Shown one piece after another: positions 27,047-50,439 of a stretch of DNA of 64,000 bases. Under the pieces are notes generated by a model. The model was not told the origin of the DNA. It searched no databases and worked only from the letters and a program-made list of their open reading frames with translations. Origin of the DNA: Acidobacteriota bacterium (GTDB taxonomy: Bacteria > Acidobacteriota > Polarisedimenticolia > Polarisedimenticolales > JAIQFR01). Both the position numbers and the translations under genes were made by a program. The stretch's first letter is position 1, and every line of letters starts with the position of its first letter. The stretch covers positions 24,797 through 88,796 of the forward strand of contig JBGQAU010000001.1 of NCBI GenBank assembly GCA_041494445.1. The letters run 5' to 3'.

Positions 27047-27128
27047 CAGGACGTCCTCCACGCTCGGAAAGATGGAACTGCGCTGTCCCCAGGTTTCCCG
27101 CCGGGCGCCTGTGCTGGACGGTCCGAGC

Positions 27129-28394
27129 TCAGGCGTACAGCCCGCGAAGCTCCGCGGCGCGCGCGACGCGCTGGATCGCGACGATGAACGCGGCGATCCG
27201 CATATTCGTCGCGTGCTCGACGCTCGCGGCCAGGACCGCGTCGAACGCCTCGACCATGTAGCGCTCGAGCTCCCGGGCCACCCGTTCCTCCTGCCAATAG
27301 TACCCCTGCCGGTTCTGCACCCACTCGAAGTAGGAGACGGTGACGCCGCCCGCGTTGCAAAGGATGTCGGGGATCAGGAACGTCCTCCTCTTCGAGAGGA
27401 TCGCGTCGGCATCGTAGGTGGTCGGGCCGTTGGCGCACTCGGCGATCACCCGCGCCTTGATGCGCGAGGCGTTCTCGCCGGTGATCTGGGTCTCGAGCGC
27501 CGCCGGGACCAGGACGTCCACGTCCATCTCGAGGAGCTTCATCGGGTCGTCGAGGTGCCTGACCTTGAGCGCGCGCTCGAGCCCCGCGAGCCCTCTGTGC
27601 TCCGCGTTGTGGCGGAACGCCGACTCGATGTCGATCCCCGCCTCGTTCACGAAGGCGCCGTTCACGTCGGAGATCCCCACGACGCGGAAGCCGAGATCGA
27701 CGAGGAGCTTCGCGGCCCACGATCCGACGTTCCCGAACCCCTGGATCGCCACGCGGGCCCTGCCCGGGTGGATCCCGAGATGCTTGCACGCCTCCCGCAC
27801 GCAGAACACCATCCCCTGCGCCGTCGCCGACTCGCGCCCCTTCGATCCACCCAGGTCGAGGGGCTTGCCCGTGACCACGCCCGGCAGGTACCCCTGCGCG
27901 TGCATCGAGAGCGTGTCCATGATCCACGCCATGATCTGGGCGTTGGTGTTCACGTCCGGCGCCGGGACGTCCCGGTCCACCCCGAACAGGTCCTCCAGCT
28001 CGGCGGCGTATCGCCTCGTCAGCCGCTCCAGCTCGCCCAGGGAGAGCTTCGACGGGTCCACGATGATGCCGCCCTTCCCGCCGCCGAACGGGATGTTCAC
28101 CACCGCGCACTTGTAGGTCATCCAGAACGCGAGCGCCTTGACCTCCTCCACGGTCACCGCGGGGTGGTACCTCAGGCCTCCCTTCGCCGGCCCGCGGGCC
28201 ATGCTGTGCTGCACCCGGTAGGCGGTGAAGATCTCGATCCGGCCGTCGTCCATCCGGACGGGGAGCTTGACCTCCGTCACCCGGCGCGGCTGCTTGATCA
28301 TGGCGACCTGGTTCGGCGTCAGATGGAGCACCCGGGCCGCCTCGTCGAACTGCTTGAACGCGTTCTCGAGCGCGTTGACGTTGTCCTTCTCCAT
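27129..28394 (-). CDS. gdhA: Glutamate dehydrogenase
   Basis: PAKGGLRYHP, FGGGKGG and the dinucleotide fold IQGFGNVG; 421 aa from ATG 28394, which has a GGGAGGA Shine-Dalgarno site. Confidence 0.9.
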   Translation of the reverse strand: MEKDNVNALENAFKQFDEAARVLHLTPNQVAMIKQPRRVTEVKLPVRMDDGRIEIFTAYRVQHSMARGPAKGGLRYHPAVTVEEVKALAFWMTYKCAVVNIPFGGGKGGIIVDPSKLSLGELERLTRRYAAELEDLFGVDRDVPAPDVNTNAQIMAWIMDTLSMHAQGYLPGVVTGKPLDLGGSKGRESATAQGMVFCVREACKHLGIHPGRARVAIQGFGNVGSWAAKLLVDLGFRVVGISDVNGAFVNEAGIDIESAFRHNAEHRGLAGLERALKVRHLDDPMKLLEMDVDVLVPAALETQITGENASRIKARVIAECANGPTTYDADAILSKRRTFLIPDILCNAGGVTVSYFEWVQNRQGYYWQEERVARELERYMVEAFDAVLAASVEHATNMRIAAFIVAIQRVARAAELRGLYA

Positions 28395-28524
28395 GGGGTC
28401 CTCCCGTCTCGGCCGGCGGAGCATGGTAGCGCGTCTCCCGGTCCTCGGCCGCTCGCACCCGCCATGCGCGGCTTCCGAGGGTTGGATACACTGTGGCGAG
28501 ATTCGGGTGTTTGCGGAGGAGAGG

Positions 28525-29445
28525 ATGAAGAACGCCGTCGTCGCCCATTCGGTCGGGCTCGCGCTCGCGATCGTCTCGTCGCTGTGCACGGGCCGGGCGG
28601 CGTCCGCGGGTCTGTGCGGCGGTGACGATCGCGTGCGGCTCGTCGAAGGCGCCTCCTTCGACACCGGGACCGCCAGATTGTCGCCCGATCAGGTCGCAGC
28701 TCTGCGACTCGCGGTCTACGCGCTGCGTCCCAAGATCGGGCTGGGCGTGGGCCCGGCCTGCACGGGGACGGCGATCTCCGAAAAGCTCATGCTGACCGCG
28801 GGGCACTGCGTGATCAAGGGCGGGATGAAGGCCTATCAGAAGCACCTCCGGCCGCGGCCCAAGCCGGTGGACCTCAAGCTCGTCTATCGCGTCTTCGACA
28901 AGCTGACGGGCGCCGATCTGGCCCTGTACGCCCGGAAGTCCGGGACGTTCCGCGACTACCTCCCCGTCGACCCGGGGTTCGGCTTCGATGCCGTGGAGCC
29001 CGGCGACCGCTTCGGGTTTCCCGCGTTTCCGTACAAGAAGTGGAACGTCTTCTCCTGGCCGCAGAAGAAGCTCCTGTTCTCGCCCGTATCGCAATCGGCG
29101 GTCGAGGATGAGGACGTGTGGTTCGGCGTGCAGCCCTGCCACGACGATCCCGCGGGAGAGCGTGGTGACGCCGGTACCACCCCGGAGCGGGCCGCCGAGA
29201 AGACCGCGGGCGGCGGGGACTTCCCTTGGTGCCGCGTGTTCTCCTGCGCAGACTTCTTCGACGGGAACAGCGGCTCGCCGATGCTGCGCTTCCACCTCGA
29301 GAACGGCGCCGAAACGATCTCGGTGATCGCGGTGGGCACGGTGAGCGTCAAGGGGAACGCACCGGACCGGTCGTTGAGCGCCGGTGCGGTGCCGGTCGCC
29401 CTGCTCCGGGACGTGCTCCCCGGGTTCCTGGCGCCGTCGAGGTAG
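28525..29445 (+). CDS. Secreted trypsin-like (S1) serine protease
   Basis: GGAGGAG Shine-Dalgarno site and a signal peptide. The catalytic His is in LTAGHC and the Ser in DGNSGSP. Confidence 0.75.
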   Translation: MKNAVVAHSVGLALAIVSSLCTGRAASAGLCGGDDRVRLVEGASFDTGTARLSPDQVAALRLAVYALRPKIGLGVGPACTGTAISEKLMLTAGHCVIKGGMKAYQKHLRPRPKPVDLKLVYRVFDKLTGADLALYARKSGTFRDYLPVDPGFGFDAVEPGDRFGFPAFPYKKWNVFSWPQKKLLFSPVSQSAVEDEDVWFGVQPCHDDPAGERGDAGTTPERAAEKTAGGGDFPWCRVFSCADFFDGNSGSPMLRFHLENGAETISVIAVGTVSVKGNAPDRSLSAGAVPVALLRDVLPGFLAPSR

Positions 29446-29573
29446 GACCGGTCTCCGGCGAACGGCAAAAACTCAAGACGGCATCGAGCCGCCAGCTGAT
29501 CGGACTTGCCCAGGGCCTCCGCGCGCCGTAGACTCCCGCTTCTTCTTCCTCTCTTTCCCACGGGGGGCGCCCG

Positions 29574-31670
29574 ATGGCAGCGAACGACCCGAAGCGAGGC
29601 GAGGGCGAGACCCGCCGCCTCCATCCTGCGGCTTATCGCGAGCTCGAGCCCGGCGAGACCTACGAGCCGTTCGTGCCTTCCGGCGCCGCGGTGCCGGAGT
29701 TCACGTTCCGCTCGGTCTTCACCGGGATCGTGATGGTCCTGATCTTCTCGGTGGCCGCGACCTACTCGGGGCTCAAGGTCGCCCAGGTGTTCGAGGCGGC
29801 GATCCCGATCTCGATCCTGGCCGTGGGCCTGTCGGGTCTCTTCCGCAGGCGCAACTCGATCCTCGAGAACGTGATCATCCAGAGCATCGGGGGCGCGTCG
29901 GGGCTCATCGTGGCCGGCTCGATCTTCACGCTTCCGGCGCTCTACATCATGAACGTCGCGCCGGGAGCCGGGAGGATGCTCCTGACGGTGTTCGTGGTCG
30001 CGGTCCTGGGCTCTTCCCTCGGCCTCCTGTTCCTGATCCCTCTCCGGCGCTATTTCGTCGCCGAGCAGCACGGGAAGCTGCCGTTCCCCGAGGCGACGGC
30101 GATCAACGAGGTCTATATCACGGGGGAAGCCGGCGGCGAGCAGGCGAGAACGCTGCTCCTCGCGGCGGGTGTGGGCGGGATCTACGACTTCCTCGCCACC
30201 TCGGTCCGGGCGTGGTCCGAGATCGTGAACTTCCAGTTCCTGCCGTTCATGAAGAACCTGGCGGACAAGTACAAGGCCGCGGTCAGCGTGAACGCGGTCG
30301 CGATGATCGTCGGGCTCGGCTACATCACCGGCCTAAGGTACTCGGCGATCATCTGCGCCGGGGGCCTGTTCTCGAACCTGATCATGGTCCCGCTGATCTA
30401 CCACTTCGGCCAGTACGTCCCCTCGATCTCCATTCCGCCGGCGCCCCTGCCCGGCGTTCCCGGGTTCATCGCGGACATGAGCGCCGGGAACATCTTCCGG
30501 CTTTACGCCCAGCGGGTCGGCGTCGGGGCCATGGCGGGCGCCGGCATCATCGGGATCCTGAAGGCGCTCCCCACCATCGCCAGCGCGTTCTCGCTGGGAT
30601 TCAAGCAGATCTTCCGCCCGCACGCCCACGCCCAGGAGGTCAGGCGCACCGACCGCGATCTCAAGATGAGCACGGTGATGGGCGGGATCGTGGCCGCGAC
30701 GCTCGCCGTCGGCGTGTTCTTCCTCGTGCTCCTGCGCCAGGACCCGGTCGCCGCCGGGAAGGCGCCTCAGATCGCGCTGACCGGCCTCGTGATCGCGTTC
30801 GTGTTCTCTTTCCTGTTCACCACCGTGGCCGCCCTGGCGACGGCCATGACCGGCAACAACCCGATCTCGGGCATGACCCTGGTCACGCTGATCATCGGCT
30901 CGACGGCCCTGGTCTCGGTCGGGCTCCAGGGCGAGTACGGGAAGTTCGCAGCGATCGTGATGGGCGCCGTGGTCTGCTCCGCCCTGGCGATGAGCGGCGG
31001 GTTCGTCACCGACCTCAAGGTCGGCTACTGGCTCGGCTCGACCCCGAGGTACCAGCAGATCTCCAAGGTGATCGGCACGCTGTTCGCCGCGGTCGGCGTC
31101 GCCCTGACCGTGCTCCTGATCCACCGCGCGTTCGGCAGGACGGACGCCGCCACGGGGCAGTTCGTCTCCGGCTTCATGAACACGCAAGTGGTGCCGGCGC
31201 CGCAGGCGAACCTGTTCGCCACGATCCTCTCCGGCATCTTCGACAAGCAGCCGGTGACCTGGCTCCTCTACAGCGTGGGCCTCGTGCTCGCGGTGCTCCT
31301 CGAGATGATGAAGATCCCGCCGCTGGCGTTCGCCATCGGGATGTACCTGCCGCTGCAGGTCAACACGCCGCTGTTCATCGGCGGCGTCGTCTCGCACTGG
31401 GTCGGGAAGAGCAGCAAGGACCCGAAGGTGTCCGAGGCGCGGTCCCAGCGCGGCACGCTCCTCGCCAGCGGGTTCATCGCCGGCGGCGCGATCATGGGTG
31501 TCGTCGGCGCGCTCCTGGTCATCGGCAAGGAGTACCTCTCGTTCCTGAACGTGGACCTCGGCGTGCCCGACAAGAGCGACACGCTGGGGCAGATCGTGAG
31601 CATCGTGATGTTCACCGGGCTGTGCCTCTTCCTCTACTTCGACTCGAGGCGCGCCAAGCCGCCGGCGTAG
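29574..31670 (+). CDS. OPT family oligopeptide transporter
   Basis: 698 aa, polytopic. The N-terminal pattern is EFTFRSVFTGIVMVLIFSVAATYSGLKV, with Gly-rich helices typical of OPT throughout. Confidence 0.85.
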   Translation: MAANDPKRGEGETRRLHPAAYRELEPGETYEPFVPSGAAVPEFTFRSVFTGIVMVLIFSVAATYSGLKVAQVFEAAIPISILAVGLSGLFRRRNSILENVIIQSIGGASGLIVAGSIFTLPALYIMNVAPGAGRMLLTVFVVAVLGSSLGLLFLIPLRRYFVAEQHGKLPFPEATAINEVYITGEAGGEQARTLLLAAGVGGIYDFLATSVRAWSEIVNFQFLPFMKNLADKYKAAVSVNAVAMIVGLGYITGLRYSAIICAGGLFSNLIMVPLIYHFGQYVPSISIPPAPLPGVPGFIADMSAGNIFRLYAQRVGVGAMAGAGIIGILKALPTIASAFSLGFKQIFRPHAHAQEVRRTDRDLKMSTVMGGIVAATLAVGVFFLVLLRQDPVAAGKAPQIALTGLVIAFVFSFLFTTVAALATAMTGNNPISGMTLVTLIIGSTALVSVGLQGEYGKFAAIVMGAVVCSALAMSGGFVTDLKVGYWLGSTPRYQQISKVIGTLFAAVGVALTVLLIHRAFGRTDAATGQFVSGFMNTQVVPAPQANLFATILSGIFDKQPVTWLLYSVGLVLAVLLEMMKIPPLAFAIGMYLPLQVNTPLFIGGVVSHWVGKSSKDPKVSEARSQRGTLLASGFIAGGAIMGVVGALLVIGKEYLSFLNVDLGVPDKSDTLGQIVSIVMFTGLCLFLYFDSRRAKPPA

Positions 31671-31699
31671 CGCGAAGCGCGGCGGTGTAGACTCCGCAT

Positions 31700-33427
31700 A
31701 TGCGCGCGCAAGAGGCTTCGCACCGCTTCCGCAGCGTCATCTTCCTCCTGCTGCTCGCGGCGGCGGTCGCGGCGGGGATCGGCGCGGCCGGCCCCGCGGC
31801 CCCTTCCGCGCGCCCGGCTCCCGGCGGGGGCGCGGTGGCGTCGGCGGCCCCCGCGGCCACGGAGACGGGTCTCCTGGTCCTCCGGGAGGGCGGCAACGCC
31901 GCGGACGCGGCGGTCGCCGTCGCGCTGGCGCTCGCGGTCGTCCACCCACAGGCGGGGAACCTCGGCGGCGGCGGGTTCGCCGTCGCGAAGTTCGGCGACG
32001 AGATTGCCGCTCTCAACTTCCGCGAGACGGCCCCCGCCGCGGCGACGCCGGGAATGTTCCTCGGCCCGGACGGGGCCCCTGTTCCGGAAAAGTCGCTCGT
32101 GGGGCCGCTCGCCGCGGGCGTACCGGGGTCGCCCGCGGGCCTCTTCGAGCTTCACCGCCGGTTCGGGCGGCTTCCGTGGAAGAAGGTCGTCGCGCCGGCG
32201 GTCGGCCTCGCCCGCGATGGATTCACGGTTACGGAGCGGTTGTCCCGGGCGATCGCCGAGGACCGCATGCTCCTGGCCCGCTTCCCGGAGACCGCGGCGG
32301 TCTGGTTGCCGGGAGGCAAGCCTCCGGCGACGGCATCGAGGATGCGGCTTCCGCGGCTCGCGGAGGCGCTCGAGGATTACGGCCGACGCGGCCCCGTAGC
32401 GCTGACGCGCGGCCGCGCCGCCAAGGCGATCGAGGCGGCGTCCCGAAAGCACGGCGGCATCCTGACCGCGCCCGACCTCGCGGCCTATGCCCCGGCCTGG
32501 CGGGCTCCGGTTCGCTTCCGCTCGTTCGGCTGGGAGATCGCCTCGATGCCGCTCCCTTCCTCGGGCGGGATCATCCTCGGGGAGACCTTCGGCATGCTGG
32601 AGCGTCTCGGATTCGCGAGGCTCGGGAAGGACAGCACGGATCGCGCGCATCTTCTGGTCGAAGCCTGGCGCCGCGCGTTCGCCGATCGCTTTCTGCTCGG
32701 CGACCCATCCACGACCGGGGCCGACGCCCCGCAGCTACTCGACCCGTCCTGGCTCGACCGGCGCGCGCGGGAGATCGACCGCGCGCGTGCAACGAGATCC
32801 ATCGACGTGATGCCCTGGCCCGGCGGCGGCCCGGAGTCGGCGCAGACGACGCACCTGTCGGTGGTGGACGCGCGCGGGGACGCGGTGGCGATGACGGTCA
32901 CGCTCAACGACTCCTTCGGCTGCCGCCTGCTGGTCCCGGAGCTCGGCATCCTCCTGAACAACGAGATGGACGACTTCGCGGCGGCCCCGGGAAAGGCCAA
33001 CCTCTACGGCCTCGTGCAGGGCCCCGCGAACGCCGTCGGACCGGGCAAGCGCATGCTCTCGTCCATGAGCCCCACGCTGGCGTGGAAAGGAAGCGAGATC
33101 CTCGCGATGGGGTCGCCGGGCGGCTCCCGCATTCCGACGGCCACCGGACAGGCGCTGCTGCGGATCCTGGTGGACGGGGATTCGCTGCAGGGCGCGGTGG
33201 CCCACCCCAGGATCCACCACCAGTGGATGCCGGACGAGGTGGTGGGCGAGGCCGGAGCGCTGACCGGAGAGGTCCGTGCGGAGCTGGCGAAACGGGGTCA
33301 CACCTTCAAGGACGTCGCCGCGCTAGGCGAGGTCCACGCCGTGCGCCGCCGTGCCGACGGCCGTCTCGAGGCTGCCGCGGATCCGCGGGGACCTGGCGCC
33401 GCCGGAGTTCAGGAGCCGCGGAAGTAG
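31700..33427 (+). CDS. ggt: Gamma-glutamyltranspeptidase
   Basis: Signal peptide, GGNAADAAVA, the autoprocessing Thr in AQTTHLSVVD, and GSPGGSRI. Confidence 0.9.
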   Translation: MRAQEASHRFRSVIFLLLLAAAVAAGIGAAGPAAPSARPAPGGGAVASAAPAATETGLLVLREGGNAADAAVAVALALAVVHPQAGNLGGGGFAVAKFGDEIAALNFRETAPAAATPGMFLGPDGAPVPEKSLVGPLAAGVPGSPAGLFELHRRFGRLPWKKVVAPAVGLARDGFTVTERLSRAIAEDRMLLARFPETAAVWLPGGKPPATASRMRLPRLAEALEDYGRRGPVALTRGRAAKAIEAASRKHGGILTAPDLAAYAPAWRAPVRFRSFGWEIASMPLPSSGGIILGETFGMLERLGFARLGKDSTDRAHLLVEAWRRAFADRFLLGDPSTTGADAPQLLDPSWLDRRAREIDRARATRSIDVMPWPGGGPESAQTTHLSVVDARGDAVAMTVTLNDSFGCRLLVPELGILLNNEMDDFAAAPGKANLYGLVQGPANAVGPGKRMLSSMSPTLAWKGSEILAMGSPGGSRIPTATGQALLRILVDGDSLQGAVAHPRIHHQWMPDEVVGEAGALTGEVRAELAKRGHTFKDVAALGEVHAVRRRADGRLEAAADPRGPGAAGVQEPRK

Positions 33428-33431
33428 GCCG

Positions 33432-33737
33432 TCAGCCCGCACGGCGCCGGCCGCGCAGCCACTTTTCGAGTGACGTCTTCGATTCGCCCGACGGCAGCCC
33501 GGCGAGAAGCCCCTCAACGCTCAGGTCCTCGTCCAGATCGGGCCAGTGGATGCCATGCCCCTGCCCGATGAGCCGCCACTTCGATCGTTCCGCCGGGGAT
33601 CCATCCACCAGCCGCGGGTACCAAGCAAGCGGCACGGAGATCGTCCTTCCGTCGGAGAGGTCGACGATGAGAGAGTCCTTTGTGACCCTGACGTCCTGCG
33701 CCAACGCCTCTCGCGGCCTATTCCGCGAAGAACTCAT
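33432..33737 (-). CDS. DUF2442 domain protein
   Basis: VRVTKDSLIVDLSDGRTISVPLAWYPRL...WRLIGQGHGIHWPDLDEDLSVEGLL is the DUF2442 signature. The start at ATG 33737 is preferred over 33764. Confidence 0.75.
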   Translation of the reverse strand: MSSSRNRPREALAQDVRVTKDSLIVDLSDGRTISVPLAWYPRLVDGSPAERSKWRLIGQGHGIHWPDLDEDLSVEGLLAGLPSGESKTSLEKWLRGRRRAG

Positions 33738-33954
33738 CCCATTTCCTCGAGAAAAACTCGGCATTCTCCTCTACCATTGCTCGGAGCCGTGCCAGCTCCA
33801 TCCGCCCGAAGCCCCCGCTATCGGCGATTCTGACGGGATCCAACCAGAATTTCGCCCTCATTCGCTCACGTTCTACGTGCACATGCCCCGGCTCGCGACG
33901 GTCAGCCCCATAGAAAAAGAACCGGTACGGTCCGCGACGGAGAACCGTCGGCAC
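33718..33954 (-). CDS. DUF4160 domain protein
   Basis: GPYRFFFYGADRREPGHVHVERERMRAKFWLDP is the DUF4160 signature. It overlaps the downstream DUF2442 gene by 20 nt, and the local GC is visibly lower. Confidence 0.75.
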   Translation of the reverse strand: MPTVLRRGPYRFFFYGADRREPGHVHVERERMRAKFWLDPVRIADSGGFGRMELARLRAMVEENAEFFSRKWDEFFAE

Positions 33955-34099
33955 CCCGCCCGCCTTCCTCGGGACCGAGGAGAAGTATAGCGCCGCGGTA
34001 CAGGCGTGGCGCGGCCGACGCGGAAACAGGTTGTGGCGCGGGAAGGCCCAGTGTGGGAAGGATGAGCACTCACATGGTTATCCGATCAACGCGCCACCC

Positions 34100-34651
34100 T
34101 CACTCCACCAGCAGGATCGCGTAACGGTTCATCGGCTGGGACGGATCGGTCAGCACGTCGAGCGGATACCCGACGGCGTGGGCGGTCGAGAAGAGGTCCA
34201 CCGCCAGCCCCTCGGGCGTGGGGCGGGCCGAGCCCGGCAGGCGGCAATCGCCCGGCCGCCCGACGCACTCCTCGCAGTGAGGGCAGCTGCCCATGAGGAG
34301 CATGAACGCCTTGCGATGACCGGAGAGGAACACCGCCCGCTCGAGCGCGAGGAGCTCCGCGTTGAGAGGCCGCGACCACCGCTTGCGTTCTTCCTCGTCC
34401 GGGGCGGCCTTCACGAAGCGGAAGATCGCCGCTTCCGCGTACTCGCGAATGAAGCGCTCGCACTCGGCGACGGACGGGTTATTGGGAGGGCACGCCACGT
34501 TGGTGCCGTACTCGGGGCATCCGTACTGGCACTTCATGCGGACCCAGTGGGCCACCACGATGTCGGCCGCGCGAAGCCAGCGGAAGTCCTCGAAGCCGTG
34601 TTCTCGAAAGAGCCTTTCTAGAGGCTCCCGATTCGTCGTGGCGACTTGCAT
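34100..34651 (-). CDS. DUF2284 family Cys-rich metal-binding protein
   Basis: MKCQYGCPEYGTNVACPP and GSCPHCEEC motifs. The start is ATG 34651 (MQVATTN). Confidence 0.7.
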   Translation of the reverse strand: MQVATTNREPLERLFREHGFEDFRWLRAADIVVAHWVRMKCQYGCPEYGTNVACPPNNPSVAECERFIREYAEAAIFRFVKAAPDEEERKRWSRPLNAELLALERAVFLSGHRKAFMLLMGSCPHCEECVGRPGDCRLPGSARPTPEGLAVDLFSTAHAVGYPLDVLTDPSQPMNRYAILLVE

Positions 34652-34690
34652 TCTCGCTCTCCCTGCGCGCTCGCGGCGCGGCATGGAACG

Positions 34691-35563
34691 CTAGAGAGCC
34701 GGCTTCGCCACGAGGTCCAGCTCGACCGTCAGCCTCGCGCCCTCGCGGGAAACCGAGCCGAACTTCCCGGCGCGATCCTGGAACACGAGGCGTCCGTCGC
34801 CCGTCGAGAGCACCTTGAGGAGCGGGTCGAGCCCCCCGCGGACGTGGGCCAGCGCCCCCGCGGCGGCCTCCGGCGACGGGTAGTCGGCGATCAAGAGCGT
34901 ACGCGTGCCGGATCCCGTCTGCCGGTACTCGCCGGCGACCGCCGTGACCCTGCCGCCGAGGAGCAGGAGGTCCCCCTCGCCGAGCGCCCCGGCGACGGCC
35001 TGGAGGCCGTACCGGCCGCGGACGAGCCGCACCGACGAGGTAACCAGACCCTCCTTCGGGAGCAGCGCCATCGCGGCGGGCGGCTCCGCGGTCGGGATCC
35101 GCGAGGCCACGAACCGCCCGAACTCGAGAAGGGCCGGCGAGACCTCCGGCGTCCCGGCGTCGTTGTTGACGAGCACGTAGTAGCGCCCCTTCACGAACGC
35201 GAGCTGATATCGGCCATAAGTGTGCCGCTCCGAGAAGCCGGAGGCCGGGGTCTCCTTACCGCACTTCGAGAGGTAGATCCCCCAGGCCGCGACCGGGTCG
35301 TCCATCCGGTAGACCTCGAGGACGATCTCCACCTCGCCGCGATGGAAACGTGCCAGGGTCAGCGCATCGAACCCCAGCTCCAGGAAGAGCTCGGCGCCGC
35401 CGTCGATGTGGCCGTAGAGCTCGGCGCCTTTGAAGGCCCGCGGGGCCTCGACCCGGCTGAAGCCGGTGAGAAAACCGTCCGGAGGAACGAGCGCGGGGTC
35501 GCCGTCGGCGCGCGCTGCGGCGGCCGCCAGGAGGAGGAACGCCGCCGCCAGCGCGCGCCTCAC
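34691..35563 (-). CDS. Secreted protein of unknown function
   Basis: GTG 35563 overlaps the stop of the upstream gene (GTGA). The signal peptide is VRRALAAAFLLLAAAAARADG. The body has ordinary globular composition (YGHIDGGAELFLELGFD...YYVLVNNDAG). Confidence 0.65.
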   Translation of the reverse strand: MRRALAAAFLLLAAAAARADGDPALVPPDGFLTGFSRVEAPRAFKGAELYGHIDGGAELFLELGFDALTLARFHRGEVEIVLEVYRMDDPVAAWGIYLSKCGKETPASGFSERHTYGRYQLAFVKGRYYVLVNNDAGTPEVSPALLEFGRFVASRIPTAEPPAAMALLPKEGLVTSSVRLVRGRYGLQAVAGALGEGDLLLLGGRVTAVAGEYRQTGSGTRTLLIADYPSPEAAAGALAHVRGGLDPLLKVLSTGDGRLVFQDRAGKFGSVSREGARLTVELDLVAKPAL

Positions 35564-36792
35564 GCTTCGATCCGGACGAGGCGGATCTTCGTGGGATCGC
35601 CCACCCCGAGGCCGAGCTTCTCCGCCTGGGCGAAGTAATCCGTGTAGCGCGGGTGGTCGACGACCTTGATCTCCATCGCCCGCCGCTTTTCGGTGATCTG
35701 GTCGTGGCCGACCCGGTCGACGGCGAAGGGGTCCGTCGCGAAGTACAGCGAGCGGAGCGGGTAGACGAACTTCTCGTTGAACATCGGGCCGTCGTCGTAC
35801 TGCGCGCGGATCCCGTCGATCACGTTCAGCACCAGCTTGTCCCGCACGGCCGGCGCCGCCAGGACCTCGGTGCAGACCCTGAACCCAAGCGGCGCGTGGA
35901 GCCGGCCGGTGTTGCAGATCGCGCCGTACCCCAGGTTCTTCGTGGCCATTGAGATCCCGGGCCCGGCGTTCTTGAACACGGCGACGTTGACGATCTTGGT
36001 CAGCCGCTCGGTGACCAGCTTCCCGAAATAGGAGAATTCGTCGTTGAACACGTGCTGGTTGAGATAGAACTCGTCGTCCTTGTAACCCGGGACCCCCTTC
36101 CCGACCACCCCTTTCGCGAAGTAGCGGGCGCTGCGATCGAAATTCCCGGCGCTGACGTGGTCCCCCTTCGCGTCGCGGAAGCTCTTTCCCTCGTCCACCA
36201 TCGTCTGGAGCGATTCGATCCTCACGCCCGGGAAACGCTCGGCGGTGAACCCGGCTTGCTTGAGCATGTCGTCGAACCGGTCCCAGATCACGATGTTCCC
36301 GCGGGGGATCCCGTTCTTCTCGAGCCAGGCGATCAGCGCCGCCACGACCTCGGGCTTGCTGCACATGAGCGGGGGGCCGACCGGATTGACCTTGATCCCG
36401 ACCACGTCGCTGCGGTCGAAGAGCATCCGGAAGCTCTTCTTCATCCCCTTTCCCGTGAGGGTCGTGATCCCCTTATCGACCATCTCCGCGACGACCTTCG
36501 CGTCCACCTTGTCGTCCTTGAGGCAGCGCGCGTCGGTCACCTGGACCACGCGCCCGGGGAATGGGCCGGGGATCGCGTGGGGCCCCTTCGGAACCTTCAT
36601 GAAATCCGCGAGGTTCGTCTCGACGTCGGCGGCAGGCTTGGGCGGGGGCGCTCCTTCCTCCGCGTGGAGCGCGGGGATGCCCAGGACCGCCCCGCCGGCG
36701 GCGACCGCGGACGCGGTGCCCAACGCCTTGAGGAAGTCGCGGCGGTCCACGCCGAGGACGGGTTTCATCGACGTGTAGCGATTGCGCCTCAT
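35560..36792 (-). CDS. Tat-exported DUF362 domain protein
   Basis: Twin-arginine signal GVDRRDFLKALGTASAVAAGGAVLGIPALHA, DUF362 core SDVVGIKVNPVG, and C-terminal FATDPFAVDRVG. Confidence 0.75.
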   Translation of the reverse strand: MRRNRYTSMKPVLGVDRRDFLKALGTASAVAAGGAVLGIPALHAEEGAPPPKPAADVETNLADFMKVPKGPHAIPGPFPGRVVQVTDARCLKDDKVDAKVVAEMVDKGITTLTGKGMKKSFRMLFDRSDVVGIKVNPVGPPLMCSKPEVVAALIAWLEKNGIPRGNIVIWDRFDDMLKQAGFTAERFPGVRIESLQTMVDEGKSFRDAKGDHVSAGNFDRSARYFAKGVVGKGVPGYKDDEFYLNQHVFNDEFSYFGKLVTERLTKIVNVAVFKNAGPGISMATKNLGYGAICNTGRLHAPLGFRVCTEVLAAPAVRDKLVLNVIDGIRAQYDDGPMFNEKFVYPLRSLYFATDPFAVDRVGHDQITEKRRAMEIKVVDHPRYTDYFAQAEKLGLGVGDPTKIRLVRIEA

Positions 36793-36827
36793 CGGATTGC
36801 CCTCCCGCCTCGTTGTACGGGGCCGGC

Positions 36828-38360
36828 CTACCACGAGTTCTGGAGCGGCCCGATCTCTCTCTCGACGGCGTCCAGCACCTCGCAACGCTCGACCGCCGCC
36901 TTCATCGCGTTGTGGTCCGGGAACAGCGGCCGGTCCACGTCGAGGTGCGCCACCACCTTGCGGATCGCGGCGTGCGCGGCGCGCGTGCCGGCGCCGGGCG
37001 TGAACTCCCGGAAGTCGAGCCCCTGCGCGGCGGCGATCATCTCGATGGCAAGCACCCCCCGGGCGTTGTCCAGGATCTGCTTCGTCTTGAGCGCCCCGTT
37101 CATCCCCATGCTCACGAAGTCCTCCTGGTCCGCCGCGGCCGGGATGGACTGGATGAAGGACGGCATGCTCAGGATCCGCTGCTCGACGATCAGCATGTCC
37201 GCGGTGTACTGGCTCAGCATCAGGCCCGAGAACATGCCGGCTCCCTTGGTCAGGAAGGCGGGCAGCCCGACGGAGAGCGCTGGGTTCGTCAGCCGGTTGA
37301 GCCGGCGCTCGGAGAGGACCGACACCATGGTGATCCCGGCGCCGACCATGTCGAGGGGCATGCTCACCGGGGTTCCCTGGAAATTCGCCCCGGTCAGCAC
37401 CCGATTCTCCTCCTGGATGAAGATCGGGTTGTCGGCGACCGCGTTCAGCTCGATCTCGAACTGCTTCCTCGCGTACGCCATCAGGTCGCGGAGCGCGCCG
37501 ATCACCTGCGGGGTCGAGCGCATCGAGTACGCGTCCTGCACCTTGACCTTGAGCTTCCCGGTAATGAGGTCGGAGCCGGTCATCACCTTCCGGAGGTTCG
37601 AGGCGCAGGTGACCGCCCCCTTGAACCCGCGCAGCTCGTGGAGCTTGGCGTCGTACGGCTTCATGTTCGCCAGCAGCGCCTCGAGGGTCATGGAGGCGGT
37701 GATCTCCGCCTGCTGGATCCAGCGCTCCGTGTCGTAGAGCAGAAGGGAGCCGATGGCGGTGATCAGGTTGGAGCCGTTGATCGCCGCAAGCCCGTCCCGG
37801 GCCTGGAGACCGGGGATAGGGATCCCCGCCTTTTCCATCGCCGCGCGGGTCGGCATCCTTTCGCCCCGGTAGAAGCTCTCTCCCTCGCCCATCAGGGACA
37901 GGGCCATCTGGCTCATCGGCGCCAGGTCGCCGCAGGCCCCGACGCTCCCCTTCTCGCACACCACGGGGGTGACCCCGCGGTTCAGCATCTCGACGTACGT
38001 CCCTGTGATCTCCGGACGGCAGCCGGAATAGCCGTTCGCATGGACGTTGATCCGGCTGAGCATCGCGGCGCGGGCGTGCTCCACCGGGATCGGATCGCCG
38101 ATGCCCGCGGCGTGGTTGTAGATCAGGTAGCGCTGGAACTGCTGCACCTGCTCGTCGTTGAGCACCACCTCGGAGAACTCGCCGATCCCCGTGTTGACGC
38201 CGTACATGATCTCGCGGGCCTCGATCTTCTTCTGGAGCATCCCACGGCATTTCTTGATCTTCTCGAGGGACTCGGGCGCCAGCGCCACTTTCTCTCCGTG
38301 GCGCGCCACCTTCACCACATCCTCGATGCTCAGGCTCTTTCCGTCGATCATCACGGGCAT
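36828..38360 (-). CDS. Aromatic amino acid / histidine ammonia-lyase family (MIO enzyme) homolog with an Ala-Cys-Gly triad
   Basis: 510 aa. MYGVNTGIGEF, YNHAAGIG, GSVGACGDLAPM (canonical is GSVGASGDLAPL), QDAYSMR and NPIF. Confidence 0.85.
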   Translation of the reverse strand: MPVMIDGKSLSIEDVVKVARHGEKVALAPESLEKIKKCRGMLQKKIEAREIMYGVNTGIGEFSEVVLNDEQVQQFQRYLIYNHAAGIGDPIPVEHARAAMLSRINVHANGYSGCRPEITGTYVEMLNRGVTPVVCEKGSVGACGDLAPMSQMALSLMGEGESFYRGERMPTRAAMEKAGIPIPGLQARDGLAAINGSNLITAIGSLLLYDTERWIQQAEITASMTLEALLANMKPYDAKLHELRGFKGAVTCASNLRKVMTGSDLITGKLKVKVQDAYSMRSTPQVIGALRDLMAYARKQFEIELNAVADNPIFIQEENRVLTGANFQGTPVSMPLDMVGAGITMVSVLSERRLNRLTNPALSVGLPAFLTKGAGMFSGLMLSQYTADMLIVEQRILSMPSFIQSIPAAADQEDFVSMGMNGALKTKQILDNARGVLAIEMIAAAQGLDFREFTPGAGTRAAHAAIRKVVAHLDVDRPLFPDHNAMKAAVERCEVLDAVEREIGPLQNSW

Positions 38361-38540
38361 GGGTTGTCTCTCCCAGGAACGAACGCTCGCGCGATCGGTA
38401 TCGCGGCCGGAAAATTGGGGAACAGGGTACTACAAGCGGAACGACCTTTCCGCCCCGCGTGCAGCGTGGCACGCGCGCACGACGATCCGCTCCCTCCGGG
38501 CTCACGCGAGCATCCGGGGGACGGCCCCCGGACCCCCGTG

Positions 38541-38584
38541 GCCACCCGTTGCAACGGCGGCAAACCGCCGTCGCAACGGGCGGC
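38541..38584 (-). other. 20-bp stem-loop, fully paired only as minus-strand RNA
   Basis: gccacccgttgcaacggcgg / caaa / ccgccgtcgcaacgggcggc. The two imperfect positions are A-C mismatches on the plus strand but G-U wobbles on the minus strand, which is the transcribed strand. Confidence 0.6.
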
Positions 38585-38650
38585 TACTTCAAGAAGACCC
38601 GGATCCATCACCCGACTCCCGCCAATGCTCTCAAGAAGGACCCGCGCGAA

Positions 38651-38676
38651 GGATGCGTCGGTCCCCCGACGCATCC
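38651..38676 (-). terminator. Candidate terminator or processing hairpin downstream of the GT39 gene
   Basis: Perfect 11-bp stem ggatgcgtcgg / tccc / ccgacgcatcc, about 50 nt after the stop at 38726. There is no clear U-tract. Confidence 0.3.
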
Positions 38677-38725
38677 GTAGCGCGGGGGCGGGGGTCCGGG
38701 GGAGACCCCCGGATGCCGGCCCAGT

Positions 38726-40543
38726 TCAGGGGTGCGGGGAGTTCCGGAGCGCCTCCTCGACCTCCTTGAGCTCCCTGGCACTGCCCGCGCGCCGGGGATC
38801 GAGACGGAGGGCCTCGCGGAACGAGGCCTCGGCCGCGGGGAGGTCGCCGACCCTCCGGTACAGCAGGCCCAGGACGTGGCGGATGTCCGGCCGGCCGGGG
38901 GCGAAGTCGGTCGCGCGGCGGTAGAAGTCGATCGCCTCCCGGTCGCGCCCCTGCCGGGCAAGGACCTTGCCCAGCTCGACGTGGACCTCGACGTGGCCGG
39001 GATCCTGCCGCAGAGCCTCCCTCAGCTCATCCTCCGCCGCGCCGAGATCGCCCTCTTTCGCCAGCAGGACCCCGATGTTGAAGTGGGCGACCGACGAGCT
39101 TTCGGGCACCGCGGGCAGTCCTACCGCGGAGGCGACCCGGTACGCCCAGTGGTTGGCCGGTGCCCGGACCGGGAGATTGACGAGCGCGAGCGCCGCGGCG
39201 GCGAGGAGCGCGGCGCGCCCCGCGGCGGGCCGCAGGGACCGGTCACGGAGCCCCAGCCGGATCCTCCCCCAAAGCTCCACGGCTCCGAACCCCGCAAACG
39301 GGAGGAGGGCCGGGATCATCGCCATGCGGTACCGGGCGATCACGAAGAACAGGATCACCGAGAGGAAGTAGGCCGCGACGTAGACGAGGAGGCCCCGCGG
39401 CCAGCCGGGCCGCCGCCACGCGAGGATCGCGCCCAGGAGGCCCAGCGGCACCACGAGGCCGAACCCCGGAAGCGGCCACCGCAGGACGGGCGCGGTCTCG
39501 CGATAGGCGTAGTAGTCGAGATTGTCAGGAACCTCGTAGGCACTCCAGTAGACGCGGATCTTCCTCGACGTCAGCACGAGCCAGTCCACGGGATGGGACG
39601 AGATCCAGGACAGGCCCTCCCGAAACCAGTAGCCCGAGGTCTCGGCGGGATCGAGCCGGCGGCCGGTACGCCTCTCGGCCTCGGCGGCGAAGTCGCGCTC
39701 CTCATGCTTCGGATTCGTCCTCAGGAACGGCGGCGCCTCGTAACGGCCGGAGTGCGCGAGCGGGTTGTTCCCGATGTAGAAGTTCTGCCCCCCCTGCGCC
39801 GTCGTCAGGACCCACCGGCCCCCCACCCACCAGTTCCGCACCGCCGTCGTCCCCAGCACGACGACGGTGCCGAGGACGAGGACGAGCGCCGCCTTGAGCG
39901 CGCGCCCGCGCGTCGTGCCCTCCCCGAGTGCTTTACCGTCGAGGAAGACCCAGACCGCCAGCGCGGCGACGACGAGCAGGAGGTTCCCGCGCGACAGAAC
40001 GGAAAGCCCGAGCACGAGCCCGGTCGCGGCCCACGTCCGCAGGCGGCACGAGGCCACCGCGCGAGAAAGGGCCAGGAGGGCTGTGGTCGCGAGGAACACG
40101 TCCATCCAGGTCTTGAGGAGGATCGCCTCATAGTAGATCGACGGGAGATACGTCGCGGCGAGGAGGCCCGACACGATCGCCGCTCGCCGTCCGAACCACG
40201 GCGACGACGCCGCGAAGACCATGGGGGCGACGAGCGATCCCAGGAGAAGCTGCACGGCGACGGCGGGAACGTGGTGGACGCCGAACAGCGAGTAGAGCGC
40301 CCCAAGGAAATACGGGTAGAGGGGATCCTGGTAGAAGATCCCACCGCCCAGCCAGTCGCCCGCGGCGATCCTCTTCGCCCATTCGTCGAAGAAGAGCGGG
40401 TCGAGACCGAGGTGCGTGAAGTACTTCGAGTCGACGACCGTCGCGAGGTGGATCGCCCGCAGGGCGGCGGAGAGCAGGAACAGCGCGAGCGGCCACCCGA
40501 AGCGCGCCAGCGCCGCCGGGTTCCGCTGCCGAGCGTCCTCCAT
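38726..40543 (-). CDS. GT39/ArnT-PMT-like membrane glycosyltransferase with C-terminal TPR repeats
   Basis: A polytopic N-domain of about 450 aa is followed by TPR-like repeats (NIGVLLAKEGDLGAAEDELREALRQDP...). Confidence 0.75.
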   Translation of the reverse strand: MEDARQRNPAALARFGWPLALFLLSAALRAIHLATVVDSKYFTHLGLDPLFFDEWAKRIAAGDWLGGGIFYQDPLYPYFLGALYSLFGVHHVPAVAVQLLLGSLVAPMVFAASSPWFGRRAAIVSGLLAATYLPSIYYEAILLKTWMDVFLATTALLALSRAVASCRLRTWAATGLVLGLSVLSRGNLLLVVAALAVWVFLDGKALGEGTTRGRALKAALVLVLGTVVVLGTTAVRNWWVGGRWVLTTAQGGQNFYIGNNPLAHSGRYEAPPFLRTNPKHEERDFAAEAERRTGRRLDPAETSGYWFREGLSWISSHPVDWLVLTSRKIRVYWSAYEVPDNLDYYAYRETAPVLRWPLPGFGLVVPLGLLGAILAWRRPGWPRGLLVYVAAYFLSVILFFVIARYRMAMIPALLPFAGFGAVELWGRIRLGLRDRSLRPAAGRAALLAAAALALVNLPVRAPANHWAYRVASAVGLPAVPESSSVAHFNIGVLLAKEGDLGAAEDELREALRQDPGHVEVHVELGKVLARQGRDREAIDFYRRATDFAPGRPDIRHVLGLLYRRVGDLPAAEASFREALRLDPRRAGSARELKEVEEALRNSPHP

Positions 40544-40567: not shown

Positions 40568-41716
40568 CTACCCCTTCGCCTTCCCGACGAAGTCCCGGCG
40601 AAGGGTGTCGAGCATCCGGTCCCGCTGGTCGTAGAGGCGGCGGAGGGGGCGGGGCTCGTGGCGCGTCAGGGCGTAGGCGGCGAGAAGCGGCAGGACGATC
40701 GTGCCGTCGCCGTAAACCACCACCGTGTCCGGTAGCTTGTCCGGGTCCACCTTCCCCCACGAGACCGCCTCGCTCGGGGTCGCTCCCGAGAGCCCGCCGG
40801 TGTCGGGGCGCGCGTCGGTGACCTGGATGAAGTAGTCGTGCCCCTCCTCGGGAAGTCCGAGAACCTCCTGGATGTGGGGCTCGGTCTGCAAGACGAAGTT
40901 CTTCGGCGAGCCGCCTCCCAGGATCAGCACGCTCGAGGTCCCGTCGCTCTTCTTCGCCTCGTAGACGATCGCCGCGGTCTCGTTCACGTCGCGCGAGACG
41001 TCGATCCGCGGGCCGCGGCTCCTCAGCCACAGCTCGGCGACGTTCATCCCGATGGACGAGTCGCCGGGCGAGGAGGTGTAGCAGGGCACGCCGCACCGGT
41101 ACGCGGCGGAAAGCAGGCAGGTGTCCTGCACCCCCAGCTCGTCCTCGCGCGCCGCGAGGTACTTCCCGAGAAGGTGGTGCAGCTCGGCGGACGACATGTC
41201 TCGCTGGAACTCCGCGCCGAGCATGACCTCCCGCAGGTACGCGTCCGTCTTCAGGAGCACGTTGTAGTCGAACAGGACGTCGTAGATCCTGACGACCCCC
41301 TCCTGACGCAGGACGCGGTCGTCCACCTGATGGTCGCCGCGATGGAGCGCGAGGCCGAGCCCGAAGTGGGCGTCGTGGTAGAGGTTCGCCCCGGTGGACA
41401 CGATCCAGTCCACGAACCCAGCGCGGATCATCGGAACCAGCGCGGAGCGGCCGAGACCGGCGGGCGTCAAGGCTCCCGAGAGGCTCATCCCCACCCGGCT
41501 CCCGGGCTCGAGCATCCGCTCGACGAAGAGTCGCGCGGCCTTCTCCAGGCGCCCGGCGTTGAAGGCCAGGAACGCATGGTCCACGAGATCCGCGGCGCCG
41601 ACCCCCTTCCCGATCGGCTCGGGGTCGATCTTCTCGCCGGAAAGCCACCCGCTCTTGGAGTCGGACACGCTTCCCTCCCGACGACCCGGGCCGGTCGCGT
41701 CGTAGAAGGGCCGCAT
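40568..41716 (-). CDS. Deoxyhypusine synthase-like protein
   Basis: [23 protein letters not shown] and [11 protein letters not shown]. The start is ATG 41716, with GTG 41668 as an alternative. Confidence 0.75.
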
Positions 41717-41735
41717 CGTAACACGGGATGCTAAG

Positions 41736-43877
41736 ATGGCTTCCATGCTCCGCGGGAATCGGCTCACGAGACCGACGCTCGCCGCGCTGGTGCTGGCCGG
41801 AGCGGCTCTCTTCGCCTGCGGCCCGAGCGAGGCCCCGAAAATTCCCGTCTCGTCGGAGACCCAGGCCCCGCCGCGGTCGGGAAGCCGCCCTCCCGACGTC
41901 GTGCTGATCACGATCGACACCCTGCGCTACGACGCCACCGGTTTCTCGGGCGCGGGACGGGTGGAGACCCCCGCGTTCGACCGGCTAGCGTCCGAGGGGC
42001 GGGCGTTCCCGTCGGCGCACGCGCACGCGGTGATCACGCTCCCGTCGCACGCGTCCATCCTGACCGGCCTCTATCCGTACGAGCACGGGATCCGGGACAA
42101 CGCGGGGTTCGTGCTGCGCGAGGACATCCCGACCCTCGCGACGATCCTGAAGGGAGCGGGGTACGCCACCGGCGCGTTCGTCTCCTCGTTCACGCTCGAC
42201 GGGCGGTTCGGACTGAAGCGCGGGTTCGACGTGTACGACGACCGGTGCGAAGGTTTCTCGGGAGACCCCTCGAGGCTGGCCGAGCGTCCGGGCGACCAGA
42301 CGGTCGGGCTGGCGATGGCCTGGTGGGAGGCGCACCGTGACGGCCCGCGGTTCCTCTGGGTCCATGTGTTCACGCCGCACTTCCCGTACGACCCGAGGGA
42401 GCCTTTCAAGAGCCGGTACCCCGACGCGCCGTACTACGGCGACGCCGCTCTCGCCGACGACCAGATCCGGCCTCTGGTGGACGCGCTGGAGCACGTGCGC
42501 GACCCGAGCCCGCTCGTCGTGTTCACCGCGGACCACGGCGAGTCGCTCGGCGAGCACGGCGAGAAAAGCCACGGCGTCTTCTGCTACGAGGCGACGCTCC
42601 GGATCCCGCTGGTGCTCTGGTCGCCCGGCCGGATCGCCCCGGGCTCCGACCCGAGGCCCGCGCGGCACGTGGACGTCCTGCCGACCGTGCTCGAGATGCT
42701 TCGTCTCCCGGCCCCGGCCGGACTTCCCGGACGCTCGCTCCTCGCTTCCGCGGCCGGCGACGCTCCCAGCTACTTCGAGGCCCTCACCGCGTGGATCAAC
42801 CGGGGATGGGCTCCGCTGTACGGAAGGATCGAAGGGGGCCGGAAGGCGATCGATCTTCCCGTGCCCGAGCTGTACGACCTCAAGGCCGACCCCGGCGAGA
42901 AGAGGAACCTCGCCCGCACCAGCCCGGCCGTTCAGCGCGAGATCGCCTCCCGCATTCCGGCGGAGGCCCGCGAGGCGCCGGGTCGCGAGACCCCGAACCA
43001 AGAGGTCGTCGAGAAACTGCGGTCCCTGGGATATCTCGCGTCGGGTCCCGCCCCGGCGCCCGCCCGCTTCGACCTCTCCTCCGACCCTAAGAACCTGATC
43101 TTCCTCGACGACGAGGTGAACGACGCGGTGCTGCGCTACCGGAGGGACCGCGACGCCCCGGGAGCGATCCGCGCTCTCGAGTCGATCCTCGCGCGGGCCG
43201 CCGGCATGGCGAACGTGTACACGCAGCTCGCCCTGATCGAAGCCGAGCAGGGGCAAGTCGAGCGGGCACTGTCGGTGCTGAAGAAGGCGGTCTCGACGGG
43301 GGTAGGCGGCGAGAAGATGAAGATCCAGCTCGCCCGGGGCTTGAGCCAGGCGGGAAGGGCGGACGAGGCGTGGGCGGCCCTGTCCGACTGCCTCGACTCG
43401 AAGAACCCGGTGACCCAGGAGGCGCTCGGCACCATCGCGGCCTCGCAGGGACGGTACGACGAGGCCCGGGCGAGGTTCGACAAGGCGCTCACACTGGATC
43501 CCACCTACCCCGCCGCGCGCGTGGACCTCGCGGTGCTCCTGATGAACCAGGGGCGAAGGGACGAGGCGAAGCGGATGCTCGAGCGCGCGCTGTCGGAAAA
43601 CGCGTACCTCCCGGACGGCTGGAACGCGATGGGGGTGATAAGGGCCCAGGAGGGCGACCTGCGCGGCGCGGTGGACGCGTGGGAGCGGGCGGTGCGGATC
43701 AACCCGAAGCTGACCATCGCCCTCATGAACCTTGCGGTCGCGTCGGAGAAGCTCGGGGATCGCGGGAAGGCGGTGGCCGCGCTGAGGCGGCTCGTCCCGA
43801 CGCTGCAAGGAGAGGCACGGCGAAAGGCGGAGGCGAAGCTCCGCTCCCTGGAGCCGAGCGCCCCGGCGGGGCCTTGA
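41736..43877 (+). CDS. Sulfatase-like (alkaline phosphatase superfamily) lipoprotein with C-terminal TPR repeats
   Basis: Lipobox [18 protein letters not shown] and [13 protein letters not shown]. The C-terminal 250 aa or so are TPR-like. Confidence 0.8.
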
Positions 43878-45800: not shown

Positions 45801-45808
45801 CGGTCGGT

Positions 45809-46696: not shown

Positions 46697-46778
46697 GGCG
46701 CCGCGTAGTCTATCAATCCGGCGGAGGCCGCTCAATTCGGGAAAACGGGGTAATCTCTTCCCGCACCGCGGAGGAGCC

Positions 46779-47668: not shown

Positions 47669-47712
47669 CGCGGCGGCTTGAATCACCGGAGCGAACGGCG
47701 GATCATGGGGCC

Positions 47713-48279: not shown

Positions 48280-48293
48280 GGCCCCTCCGACCC

Positions 48294-50357: not shown

Positions 50358-50439
50358 GAGGTCTCCTTCGCCCTGCGCTTCGGCGCGCACCGTCCCGACC
50401 CCGGCCGGGGCGCCGACGGAACCGGGATTCTACTTCAAA

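Follow-up and report, generated by a model that had tools for sequence, protein, structure and literature searches.

We analysed a 64,000-nucleotide (nt) stretch of DNA from an Acidobacteriota bacterium (contig JBGQAU010000001.1; hereafter the window) in which four packed minus-strand genes, at 34100-38360, encode a lyase, a DUF362 protein, a DUF6599 protein and a DUF2284 protein. The locus probably represents a widely conserved, self-contained two-gene periplasmic module accompanied by two lineage-specific neighbours. Sequence features and structural models suggest that the module joins a divergent member of the DUF362 family, which adopts a LarA-type two-domain fold and is predicted to be exported by the twin-arginine translocation (Tat) pathway, to a translationally coupled DUF6599 protein, predicted to be exported by the Sec pathway.

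Conservation of the DUF362–DUF6599 pair

The intergenic spacings are 35 nt, −4 nt (a GTGA overlap) and 39 nt, and our reading of the minus strand agrees in coordinates and spacings with a first-pass annotation of the same DNA. Because short same-strand gaps are common in a dense genome of ~70% G+C, the value for the window, tight packing alone is weak evidence, which makes conservation the informative test.

DUF6599 homologs were collected, 28 of which were aligned, and one genome per species of the Genome Taxonomy Database (GTDB) was scanned; 380 genomes encode a relative. Eighty species-level loci, each with up to 10 kilobases (kb) of flank per side, were examined by searching six-frame open reading frames (ORFs) with the four window proteins (loci carry an L number below). 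Neighbour counts derive from targeted phmmer and hmmsearch runs on these loci. All-against-all clustering of stop-to-stop ORFs from the 80 loci was swamped by antisense and read-through ORFs in the high-G+C DNA; the usable clusters were the canonical Tat-DUF362 and lineage-specific synteny blocks.

In 76 of the 80 loci, the gene immediately preceding DUF6599 on the same strand encodes a Tat-DUF362 protein; the first-pass annotation had overlooked this conserved unit. Among the four exceptions, one lies at a contig edge, L071 has an amidase gene upstream and L080 a gene for an iron–sulphur (Fe-S) flavoprotein. The pair occurs in Acidobacteriota, Planctomycetota, Calditrichota, Zixibacteria, KSB1, Omnitrophota and other phyla, and its immediate neighbours change by locus (TetR, methyltransferase, M50 protease, RDD, Kelch, GSDH). 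Spacing could be measured in 73 loci: the 4-nt overlap is present in 19, and 44 fall between −10 and +40 nt, values typical of translational coupling. A gene of ~1 kb is inserted within the pair in three loci.

More distant paralogous pairs have the reverse order, with a DUF6599-like gene followed by a gene for a Tat-DUF362 protein of 297-299 amino acids (aa). They occur in L105 (1793-3652), where Pfam confirmed the DUF6599-like member, in L109 (154-2010) and in L054 (18815-20624), where the reversed pair is a second one beside a standard pair. As both gene orders exist, the DUF362 and DUF6599 families are linked independently of order, and this provides the strongest argument that the two proteins work together. 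We consider it extremely improbable that the genes form no functional unit at all, their adjacency being due to chance in a dense genome and the DUF362–DUF6599 order to inherited synteny. High coding density and short gaps throughout the window would fit such an explanation, but the pair persists across phyla whereas none of its flanks does, the 4-nt overlap is found repeatedly, and paralogous pairs exist in reversed order.

Directly upstream of the pair, 17 of the 80 loci encode a NapH-like membrane polyferredoxin with Fer4_5 and 4Fe-4S domains (Table 1). A canonical Tat-DUF362 of 327 aa precedes the NapH-like gene in 11 of these 17 loci, and L063 has both in another arrangement. The presence of a NapH-like neighbour in about a fifth of loci hints at redox chemistry or electron transfer.

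Predicted properties of the two exported proteins

The DUF362 protein matches PF04015 (E = 9e-13; 49.2 bits against a gathering score of 24), with the match limited to the C-terminal half of the model (profile positions 99-198). The protein starts MRRNRYTSMKPVLGVDRRDFLK, and its N terminus comprises the twin-arginine motif DRRDFLK followed by a hydrophobic region, ALGTASAVAAGGAVLGIPALHA. This N terminus passes the Tat signal model TIGR01409 (23.2 against a cut-off of 16.7) and scores 17.9 with the Pfam model TAT_signal, under its cut-off of 22.7. The arginine pair is invariant in 40 of 40 homologs, at a mean column identity of 67%, and the homologs (n = 120) share 60-90% identity and are highly constrained. 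The twin-arginine motif (RRDFLK) recognized by the first-pass annotation is thus upheld by both the TIGR01409 score and its invariance, with export predicted from sequence.

Structure prediction, which that annotation had proposed for both exported proteins, yielded an AlphaFold2 (AF2) model of the DUF362 protein with a predicted local distance difference test (pLDDT) score of 82 and an apparent LarA-type two-domain fold. The top eight Foldseek matches in the Protein Data Bank (PDB) were all LarA-family structures (probability 0.99-1.00, E = 4e-5 to 8e-4), the top matches being LarA-like nickel-pincer nucleotide (NPN) enzymes, a malate racemase and Isosphaera LarA (4nar, 9q3j, 7s91, 6d6z and 9eid). 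No significant non-LarA fold was found among the PDB matches. Pfam is consistent with the modelled fold, as it groups DUF362 with DUF2088, the N-terminal family of LarA, in clan CL0471 (PMC11770544).

The model therefore resembles LarA in fold, by its sole significant structural matches and the shared clan, yet we do not assign the protein to the LarA family. LarA enzymes are cytoplasmic, whereas the window protein bears an invariant Tat signal and comes with its own dedicated secreted partner. Moreover, it has no sequence-level match to any solved LarA, and neither the window nor the examined flanks contain larB, larC or larE. When the PDB was searched by sequence with alignments of the window-type DUF362, the canonical DUF362 and DUF6599, and with the DUF2284 protein, no match fell below E = 0.28.

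Canonical DUF362 proteins (PF04015) are often fused to, or encoded beside, 4Fe-4S proteins, and many are Tat-exported like the window protein. An hhalign comparison of the window subfamily with the canonical Tat-DUF362 gave 99% probability (E = 3.5e-18) over 268 columns, and the two share the motifs K-x-N, K-N, R-x-H and TDP-A-D. By contrast, the window subfamily exceeds the canonical length by ~80-110 aa and carries an insertion at about residues 175-260.

The second member of the pair, a 290-aa protein, had been described in the first-pass annotation as secreted and unplaceable in any family. Its signal-like hydrophobic N terminus bears out the former, whereas Pfam assigns it to DUF6599 (PF20244; residues 34-228, E = 1.5e-27, 96.8 bits against a gathering score of 27). 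The N terminus, MRRALAAAFLLLAAAAARA followed by DGD, is hydrophobic and ends in AARA before the DGD, consistent with a Sec-type secreted protein. In the 28-sequence alignment, an invariant polar motif reads Y-x-x-I-D-G-G-A-E-x-F-L-E-x-G-F ... R-H-T. The family is large, with 5604 clusters at 50% identity (E ≤ 1e-3).

Prediction of the DUF6599 structure gave a confident AF2 model (pLDDT 92.8) with two alpha/beta domains, and only weak PDB matches. The best of these was TP0453 (E = 3e-3, probability 0.96, template modelling (TM) score ~0.3), with further weak matches to TiME (probability 0.92-0.97), LprG and RseB. These periplasmic alpha/beta ligand-binding proteins are all extracytoplasmic, but they reach TM-scores of only 0.2-0.35 and share no sequence similarity with DUF6599, which has its own invariant polar motif. 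The model has no convincing structural relative.

The lyase and DUF2284 neighbours

The full four-gene set was found only in the window, in L086 and in the fragment L094 (relatives at 78-83% identity), and the four-gene system put forward in the first-pass annotation is therefore confined to near relatives, an outcome that the annotation itself had named as refuting it. L086, at 78% DUF6599 identity, has all four genes and the same flanks as the window. Lyase, DUF362 and DUF6599 occur together without DUF2284 in L001 (69%), L088 (60%) and L089 (53%), the last with different genes on both flanks. The same trio is present in L007 (57%), where the contig stops directly after DUF6599, so that the presence of DUF2284 cannot be assessed; L087 (70%) has the pair alone. 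Under ~52% identity, the pair alone stays. Overall, the lyase lies upstream of the pair in six of the seven loci at ≥53% DUF6599 identity, all in one acidobacterial clade, and the spacings within the trio are 11-88 nt. Judged from gene order, the trio holds within one clade and the pair is general; in that clade, the lyase appears to have become the first gene of the transcription unit.

An 11-nt motif, TGTAGTACCCT, is identical upstream of the lyase in the window, L086 (3077-3087), L001 (4134-4144), L088 (3166-3176) and L089 (3135-3145), despite differing upstream genes. It is the single match in the window at up to one mismatch (0.06 expected) and was not found in 108 other loci, stand-alone lyases included. 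We regard it as a possible promoter or operator of the transcription unit. A sigma-70 promoter scan found no promoter-like site. The 35-nt gap between lyase and DUF362 contains GGGAGG, the GTG start of DUF6599 overlaps the TGA stop of DUF362 as GTGA, and the 39-nt gap before DUF2284 contains GGGAGAG ahead of the ATG at 34651; an alternative in-frame ATG at 34684 would reduce that gap to 6 nt. Across the four genes and their gaps, the scan placed a single terminator-like hairpin, a weak one inside DUF6599 (35490-35475), which is no more than shuffled sequences yield. A further hairpin downstream of DUF2284 (Table 1) may possibly mark the end of the transcription unit; as the scan gave five sites against 2.8 ± 2.0 in shuffles, the site is weak evidence for a transcript end. 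A scan of 33000-39500 against Rfam returned chance-level matches only. Judged from their arrangement, the four genes are probably co-transcribed in this genome, as the first-pass annotation argued from the spacings, and this probably reflects local operon growth rather than a four-part pathway.

The lyase matches PF00221 (Lyase_aromatic) over its full length (E = 9e-163). It passes the histidine ammonia-lyase (HAL) subfamily model NF006871 (538.6 against a cut-off of 524) and falls narrowly under that of the hutH equivalog TIGR01225 (519.9 against 539.15). Among solved structures, the best match is 7tqr, a probable HAL of Thermoplasma acidophilum; the alignment begins at residue 3, which indicates that the lyase has no signal peptide. 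The segments NHAAG and QEDFVS, each conserved in 120 of 120 of the homologs at ≥80% identity, correspond in this alignment to the SHSSG and QEDHVS segments of 7tqr. We take the His of the SHAAG motif and the Glu of QED to be the HAL-type imidazole-binding positions, after H83 and E414 of Pseudomonas putida. An ergothionase-type enzyme was considered and rejected, since the match to 6s7j (E = 3.5e-59) is far weaker than that to HAL (E = 1e-98) and the triad is of the type that forms 4-methylideneimidazole-5-one (MIO).

The first-pass description of the gene product as an MIO-lyase homolog stands as regards the family, except that the triad is Ala-Cys-Gly (ACG; in GSVGACGDLAP, codons at 37928-37936) rather than Ala-Ser-Gly (ASG). 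Among the homologs (P0241-P0360), 114 of 120 have ACG and 6 of 120 have ASG. The S143C mutant of P. putida HAL is reportedly processed to an active enzyme, which suggests that Cys in the triad may still yield MIO. The literature searched contained nothing on an Ala-Cys-Gly MIO or on S143C. According to a 2026 preprint, Ala-Ser-Gly is present in all characterised ammonia-lyases of the family (10.64898/2026.04.22.720169).

Compared with HutH (P. putida, 1b8f; T. acidophilum, 7tqr), the window lyase retains the full-length PF00221 match, a passing score for the HAL subfamily and the motif His and Glu. HutH, by contrast, has the Ala-Ser-Gly triad and QEDH, where the lyase has Ala-Cys-Gly and QEDF, and is associated with hutU/hutI. 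The first-pass annotation had noted the lack of such partners in the window, and indeed no urocanase or imidazolonepropionase family member was found among window ORFs of ≥320 aa. In a reverse test, 120 lyase homologs at 80-91% identity were collected and four on long contigs were inspected for neighbours. These four orthologs, at ≥80% identity, have unrelated neighbours, with no DUF362, DUF6599 or hut genes and specifically no hutU/hutI within 7 kb. The subfamily is 80-91% identical across Acidobacteriota, Thermoanaerobaculaceae and Elusimicrobiota, pointing to unusually slow evolution or recent spread. On these comparisons, the lyase is a cytoplasmic HAL-like enzyme of a very slowly evolving subfamily that normally stands alone.

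The first-pass annotation knew of no described pathway with this layout. Shewanella operons that couple PF00221-family lyases to periplasmic reductases (swoo_3912-3913, so_3056-3058 and so_3299-3301) do provide a precedent, as a lyase gene there shares an operon with genes for exported proteins, and urocanate or a derivative, made by the lyase, is the substrate of the exported partner (bioRxiv 10.1101/2025.08.13.670108; 10.64898/2026.04.22.720169). Their defining features, however, are absent here. The Shewanella lyases have signal peptides, lack an MIO triad and remove trimethylamine from betaines, whereas the window lyase has an MIO-type triad and is cytoplasmic. They are partnered by flavocytochromes c with FAD and heme, the window lyase by DUF362 and DUF6599, and Pfam detected no FAD or heme c reductase in the window cluster.

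This precedent bears on the main rival to our reading, an unproven and on balance unlikely lyase-to-periplasm pathway in the clade: the lyase would deaminate histidine or a close derivative to urocanate, urocanate or a derivative would reach the periplasm, and the periplasmic pair would reduce or convert it there, in a Shewanella-like manner. Such a three-gene unit would explain the tight trio of the clade, its retention in L089, the TGTAGTACCCT motif kept in the five relatives that carry it and, for L073 and L078, a lyase gene at a distance of 2-3 kb. It would also fit the electron acceptors that PF00221 lyases supply to genetically coupled periplasmic reductases, and the redox chemistry suggested by the NapH-like link of the pair. 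Set against these points, at least 70 loci have the pair with no lyase within 10 kb, and the four inspected lyase orthologs have no pair nearby. The lyase also lacks the signal peptide of the Shewanella enzymes and has the MIO-type triad that they lack, and its partner is not a flavocytochrome c. Moreover, the clade may share the trio merely by descent, and in L073 the lyase is on the other strand, separated from the pair by a transposase-like gene (REP-associated or IS200-like, judged by eye) and a short-chain dehydrogenase/reductase (SDR) gene (10895-11857, minus strand).

The DUF2284 identity of the Cys-rich fourth protein is borne out by a full-length match to PF10050 (E = 8e-43; 146.4 bits against a gathering score of 25). 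Partial matches to the DUF2284 domains of the MbdU and ArsM selenoproteins are far under the cut-offs, and the literature searched contained nothing functional on DUF2284. No DUF2284 gene was found within 10 kb of the pair in any of the 80 GTDB loci. In a metagenome scan with DUF2284 as the query, it followed DUF6599 only in L094, a fragment at 83% identity, and it is missing at the equivalent position in the syntenic L001, L088 and L089. From its distribution, DUF2284 is a recent downstream neighbour in the closest relatives only, outside the conserved unit.

We therefore consider it very unlikely that the four genes form one dedicated pathway, as the first-pass annotation proposed. Such a pathway would link a cytoplasmic amino-acid deaminase, two exported proteins and a DUF2284 metal-binding protein, the last of which might, for instance, provide the Tat substrate with a cofactor or metal. 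Tight packing without a promoter-like site or convincing terminator between the genes and the identical layout in L086 would be expected of such a pathway. It would also be in keeping with the DUF2284 relatives that lie at most ~1.5 kb from other Tat-DUF362 genes, in two unrelated layouts (L096; L105/L109), which hint at a loose DUF2284–DUF362 association. The full set, however, exists only at ≥78% identity, DUF2284 is missing from the syntenic loci and from all 80 loci within 10 kb, and six of ~9 DUF2284-relative loci with at least ~3 kb of flank have no DUF362. The recurrent DUF2284–DUF362 association is faint. The two arrangements read DUF2284, CPBP protease, DUF362 in L096 (4986-8214) and pair, FmdB zinc ribbon, YggS (opposite strand), DUF2284 in L105 (2759-5546).

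Table 1. Genes and candidate signals of the locus, and loci with a NapH-like gene.
Feature	Position	Strand	Description
Lyase	36828-38360	−	ATG 38360, TAG 36830-36828; 510 aa; cytoplasmic MIO-family, histidine ammonia-lyase-like
DUF362	35560-36792	−	ATG 36792, TGA 35562-35560; 410 aa; predicted Tat signal; first of conserved pair
DUF6599	34691-35563	−	GTG 35563, TAG 34693-34691; 290 aa; predicted Sec-type; second of conserved pair
DUF2284	34100-34651	−	ATG 34651, stop codon ends 34100; 183 aa; cytoplasmic, Cys-rich; downstream neighbour
Candidate promoter or operator motif TGTAGTACCCT, 11 nt	38424-38434	−	64-74 nt upstream of lyase start
Terminator-like hairpin, then T-run	33919-33933	−	consensus scan; ~170 nt downstream of DUF2284
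NapH-like gene upstream of pair	L042: 5966-8600		also L009, L018, L019, L021-L026, L030, L032, L035, L036, L038, L040, L052

Beyond the four genes and upstream of the lyase, a deoxyhypusine synthase-like gene (40568-41920) and a divergent sulfatase and TPR gene (41736-43877) are syntenic in L086, L001 and L088. A PMT_2/TPR glycosyltransferase-like gene (38726-40543) upstream of the lyase is common to the window and L086 only. The stretch between DUF6599 and a DUF2442 gene (33432-33764, minus strand, in the window; 9641-10163 in L001) is variable. In the window it holds DUF2284, and in L001 a 66-aa ORF, a HATPase_c protein and DUF4160; L086 and L088 pass directly to a gamma-glutamyltranspeptidase (GGT) gene.

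The window as a whole is rich in genes for peptide and amino-acid catabolism (1337-2524, 7330-8940, 14193-16508, 25388-33427 and 44073-51620). These include two OPT transporters, GGT, glutamate dehydrogenase (GDH), angiotensin-converting enzyme (ACE)-like M2, M19, M24 and M28 peptidases, a penicillin amidase, a family-5 solute-binding protein and a 2-oxoacid:ferredoxin oxidoreductase. A natural-product cluster was rejected as an explanation for the lyase, as the neighbourhood is of this catabolic type, with no polyketide synthase (PKS), nonribosomal peptide synthetase (NRPS) or tailoring genes. Three ORFs, of 698, 519 and 326 aa (23282-25375, plus strand; 45812-47368, minus strand; 58445-59422, plus strand), have no Pfam match and a coding-like G+C content at third codon positions (GC3), and a 1035-aa ORF (59463-62567, plus strand) has only a weak GIY-YIG match.

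Proposed activity and significance

For the module formed by the DUF362–DUF6599 pair, we propose a mechanism that as a whole is tentative and somewhat doubtful. The DUF362 protein would fold and take up a cofactor or metal while still in the cytoplasm, and this would account for the invariant twin-arginine motif. Once exported, it might carry out redox or isomerase-type chemistry on a small periplasmic molecule. DUF6599, produced in matched amounts, could be the binding or accessory subunit that assists it in the periplasm. In loci with an adjacent gene for a NapH-like membrane ferredoxin, that protein may supply or remove electrons.

Several observations weigh against reading the locus as a self-contained periplasmic pair of LarA-type fold. 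The global TM-scores of the DUF362 model to LarA are low (0.33-0.38). In addition, the canonical AK(H/T)H aligns with FKNA in the window subfamily, so that the invariant His of K-x-H in canonical DUF362 corresponds to A276; the subfamily may therefore differ in catalysis. The literature searched reports no function for DUF362/PF04015 and does not mention DUF6599, and no characterised homolog of either was found. DUF2284 relatives recur near other Tat-DUF362 genes in L096 and L105, and the trio persists in L089 although its flanks differ on both sides. Finally, the lyase adjoins the pair in two of the 80 species-level loci (L006 and L007), and in L073 and L078, of an Aminicenantes-like lineage, it is encoded on the opposite strand at a distance of 2-3 kb. 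This juxtaposition in four of 80 loci, from two or three lineages, is far from general but exceeds the ~0.2 loci expected by chance, so that a functional link to the lyase is possible.

At its most far-reaching, the analysis would describe Tat-DUF362/DUF6599 as a novel LarA-fold periplasmic enzyme system, loaded with cofactor in the cytoplasm, wired to the membrane by NapH-like ferredoxins and, in the clade of the window, fed by a cytoplasmic Cys-type MIO histidine lyase. This would amount to a new route for the extracytoplasmic conversion or respiration of urocanate-like compounds, a combination that we regard as a long shot.

The object of interest at this locus is the uncharacterised pair rather than the four-gene set, since a four-gene pathway does not generalise. 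The natural Ala-Cys-Gly lyase subfamily, at ≥80% identity across phyla, is of separate interest as a simple test case for MIO formation from Cys in nature. No fewer than 380 species-level genomes carry the pair, which is frequent in Acidobacteriota and in other phyla of soil and sediment that have been little studied. A LarA-fold protein exported by way of an invariant Tat signal would add to a superfamily so far represented by cytoplasmic nickel-pincer racemases alone, and points to an uncharacterised periplasmic cofactor enzyme.

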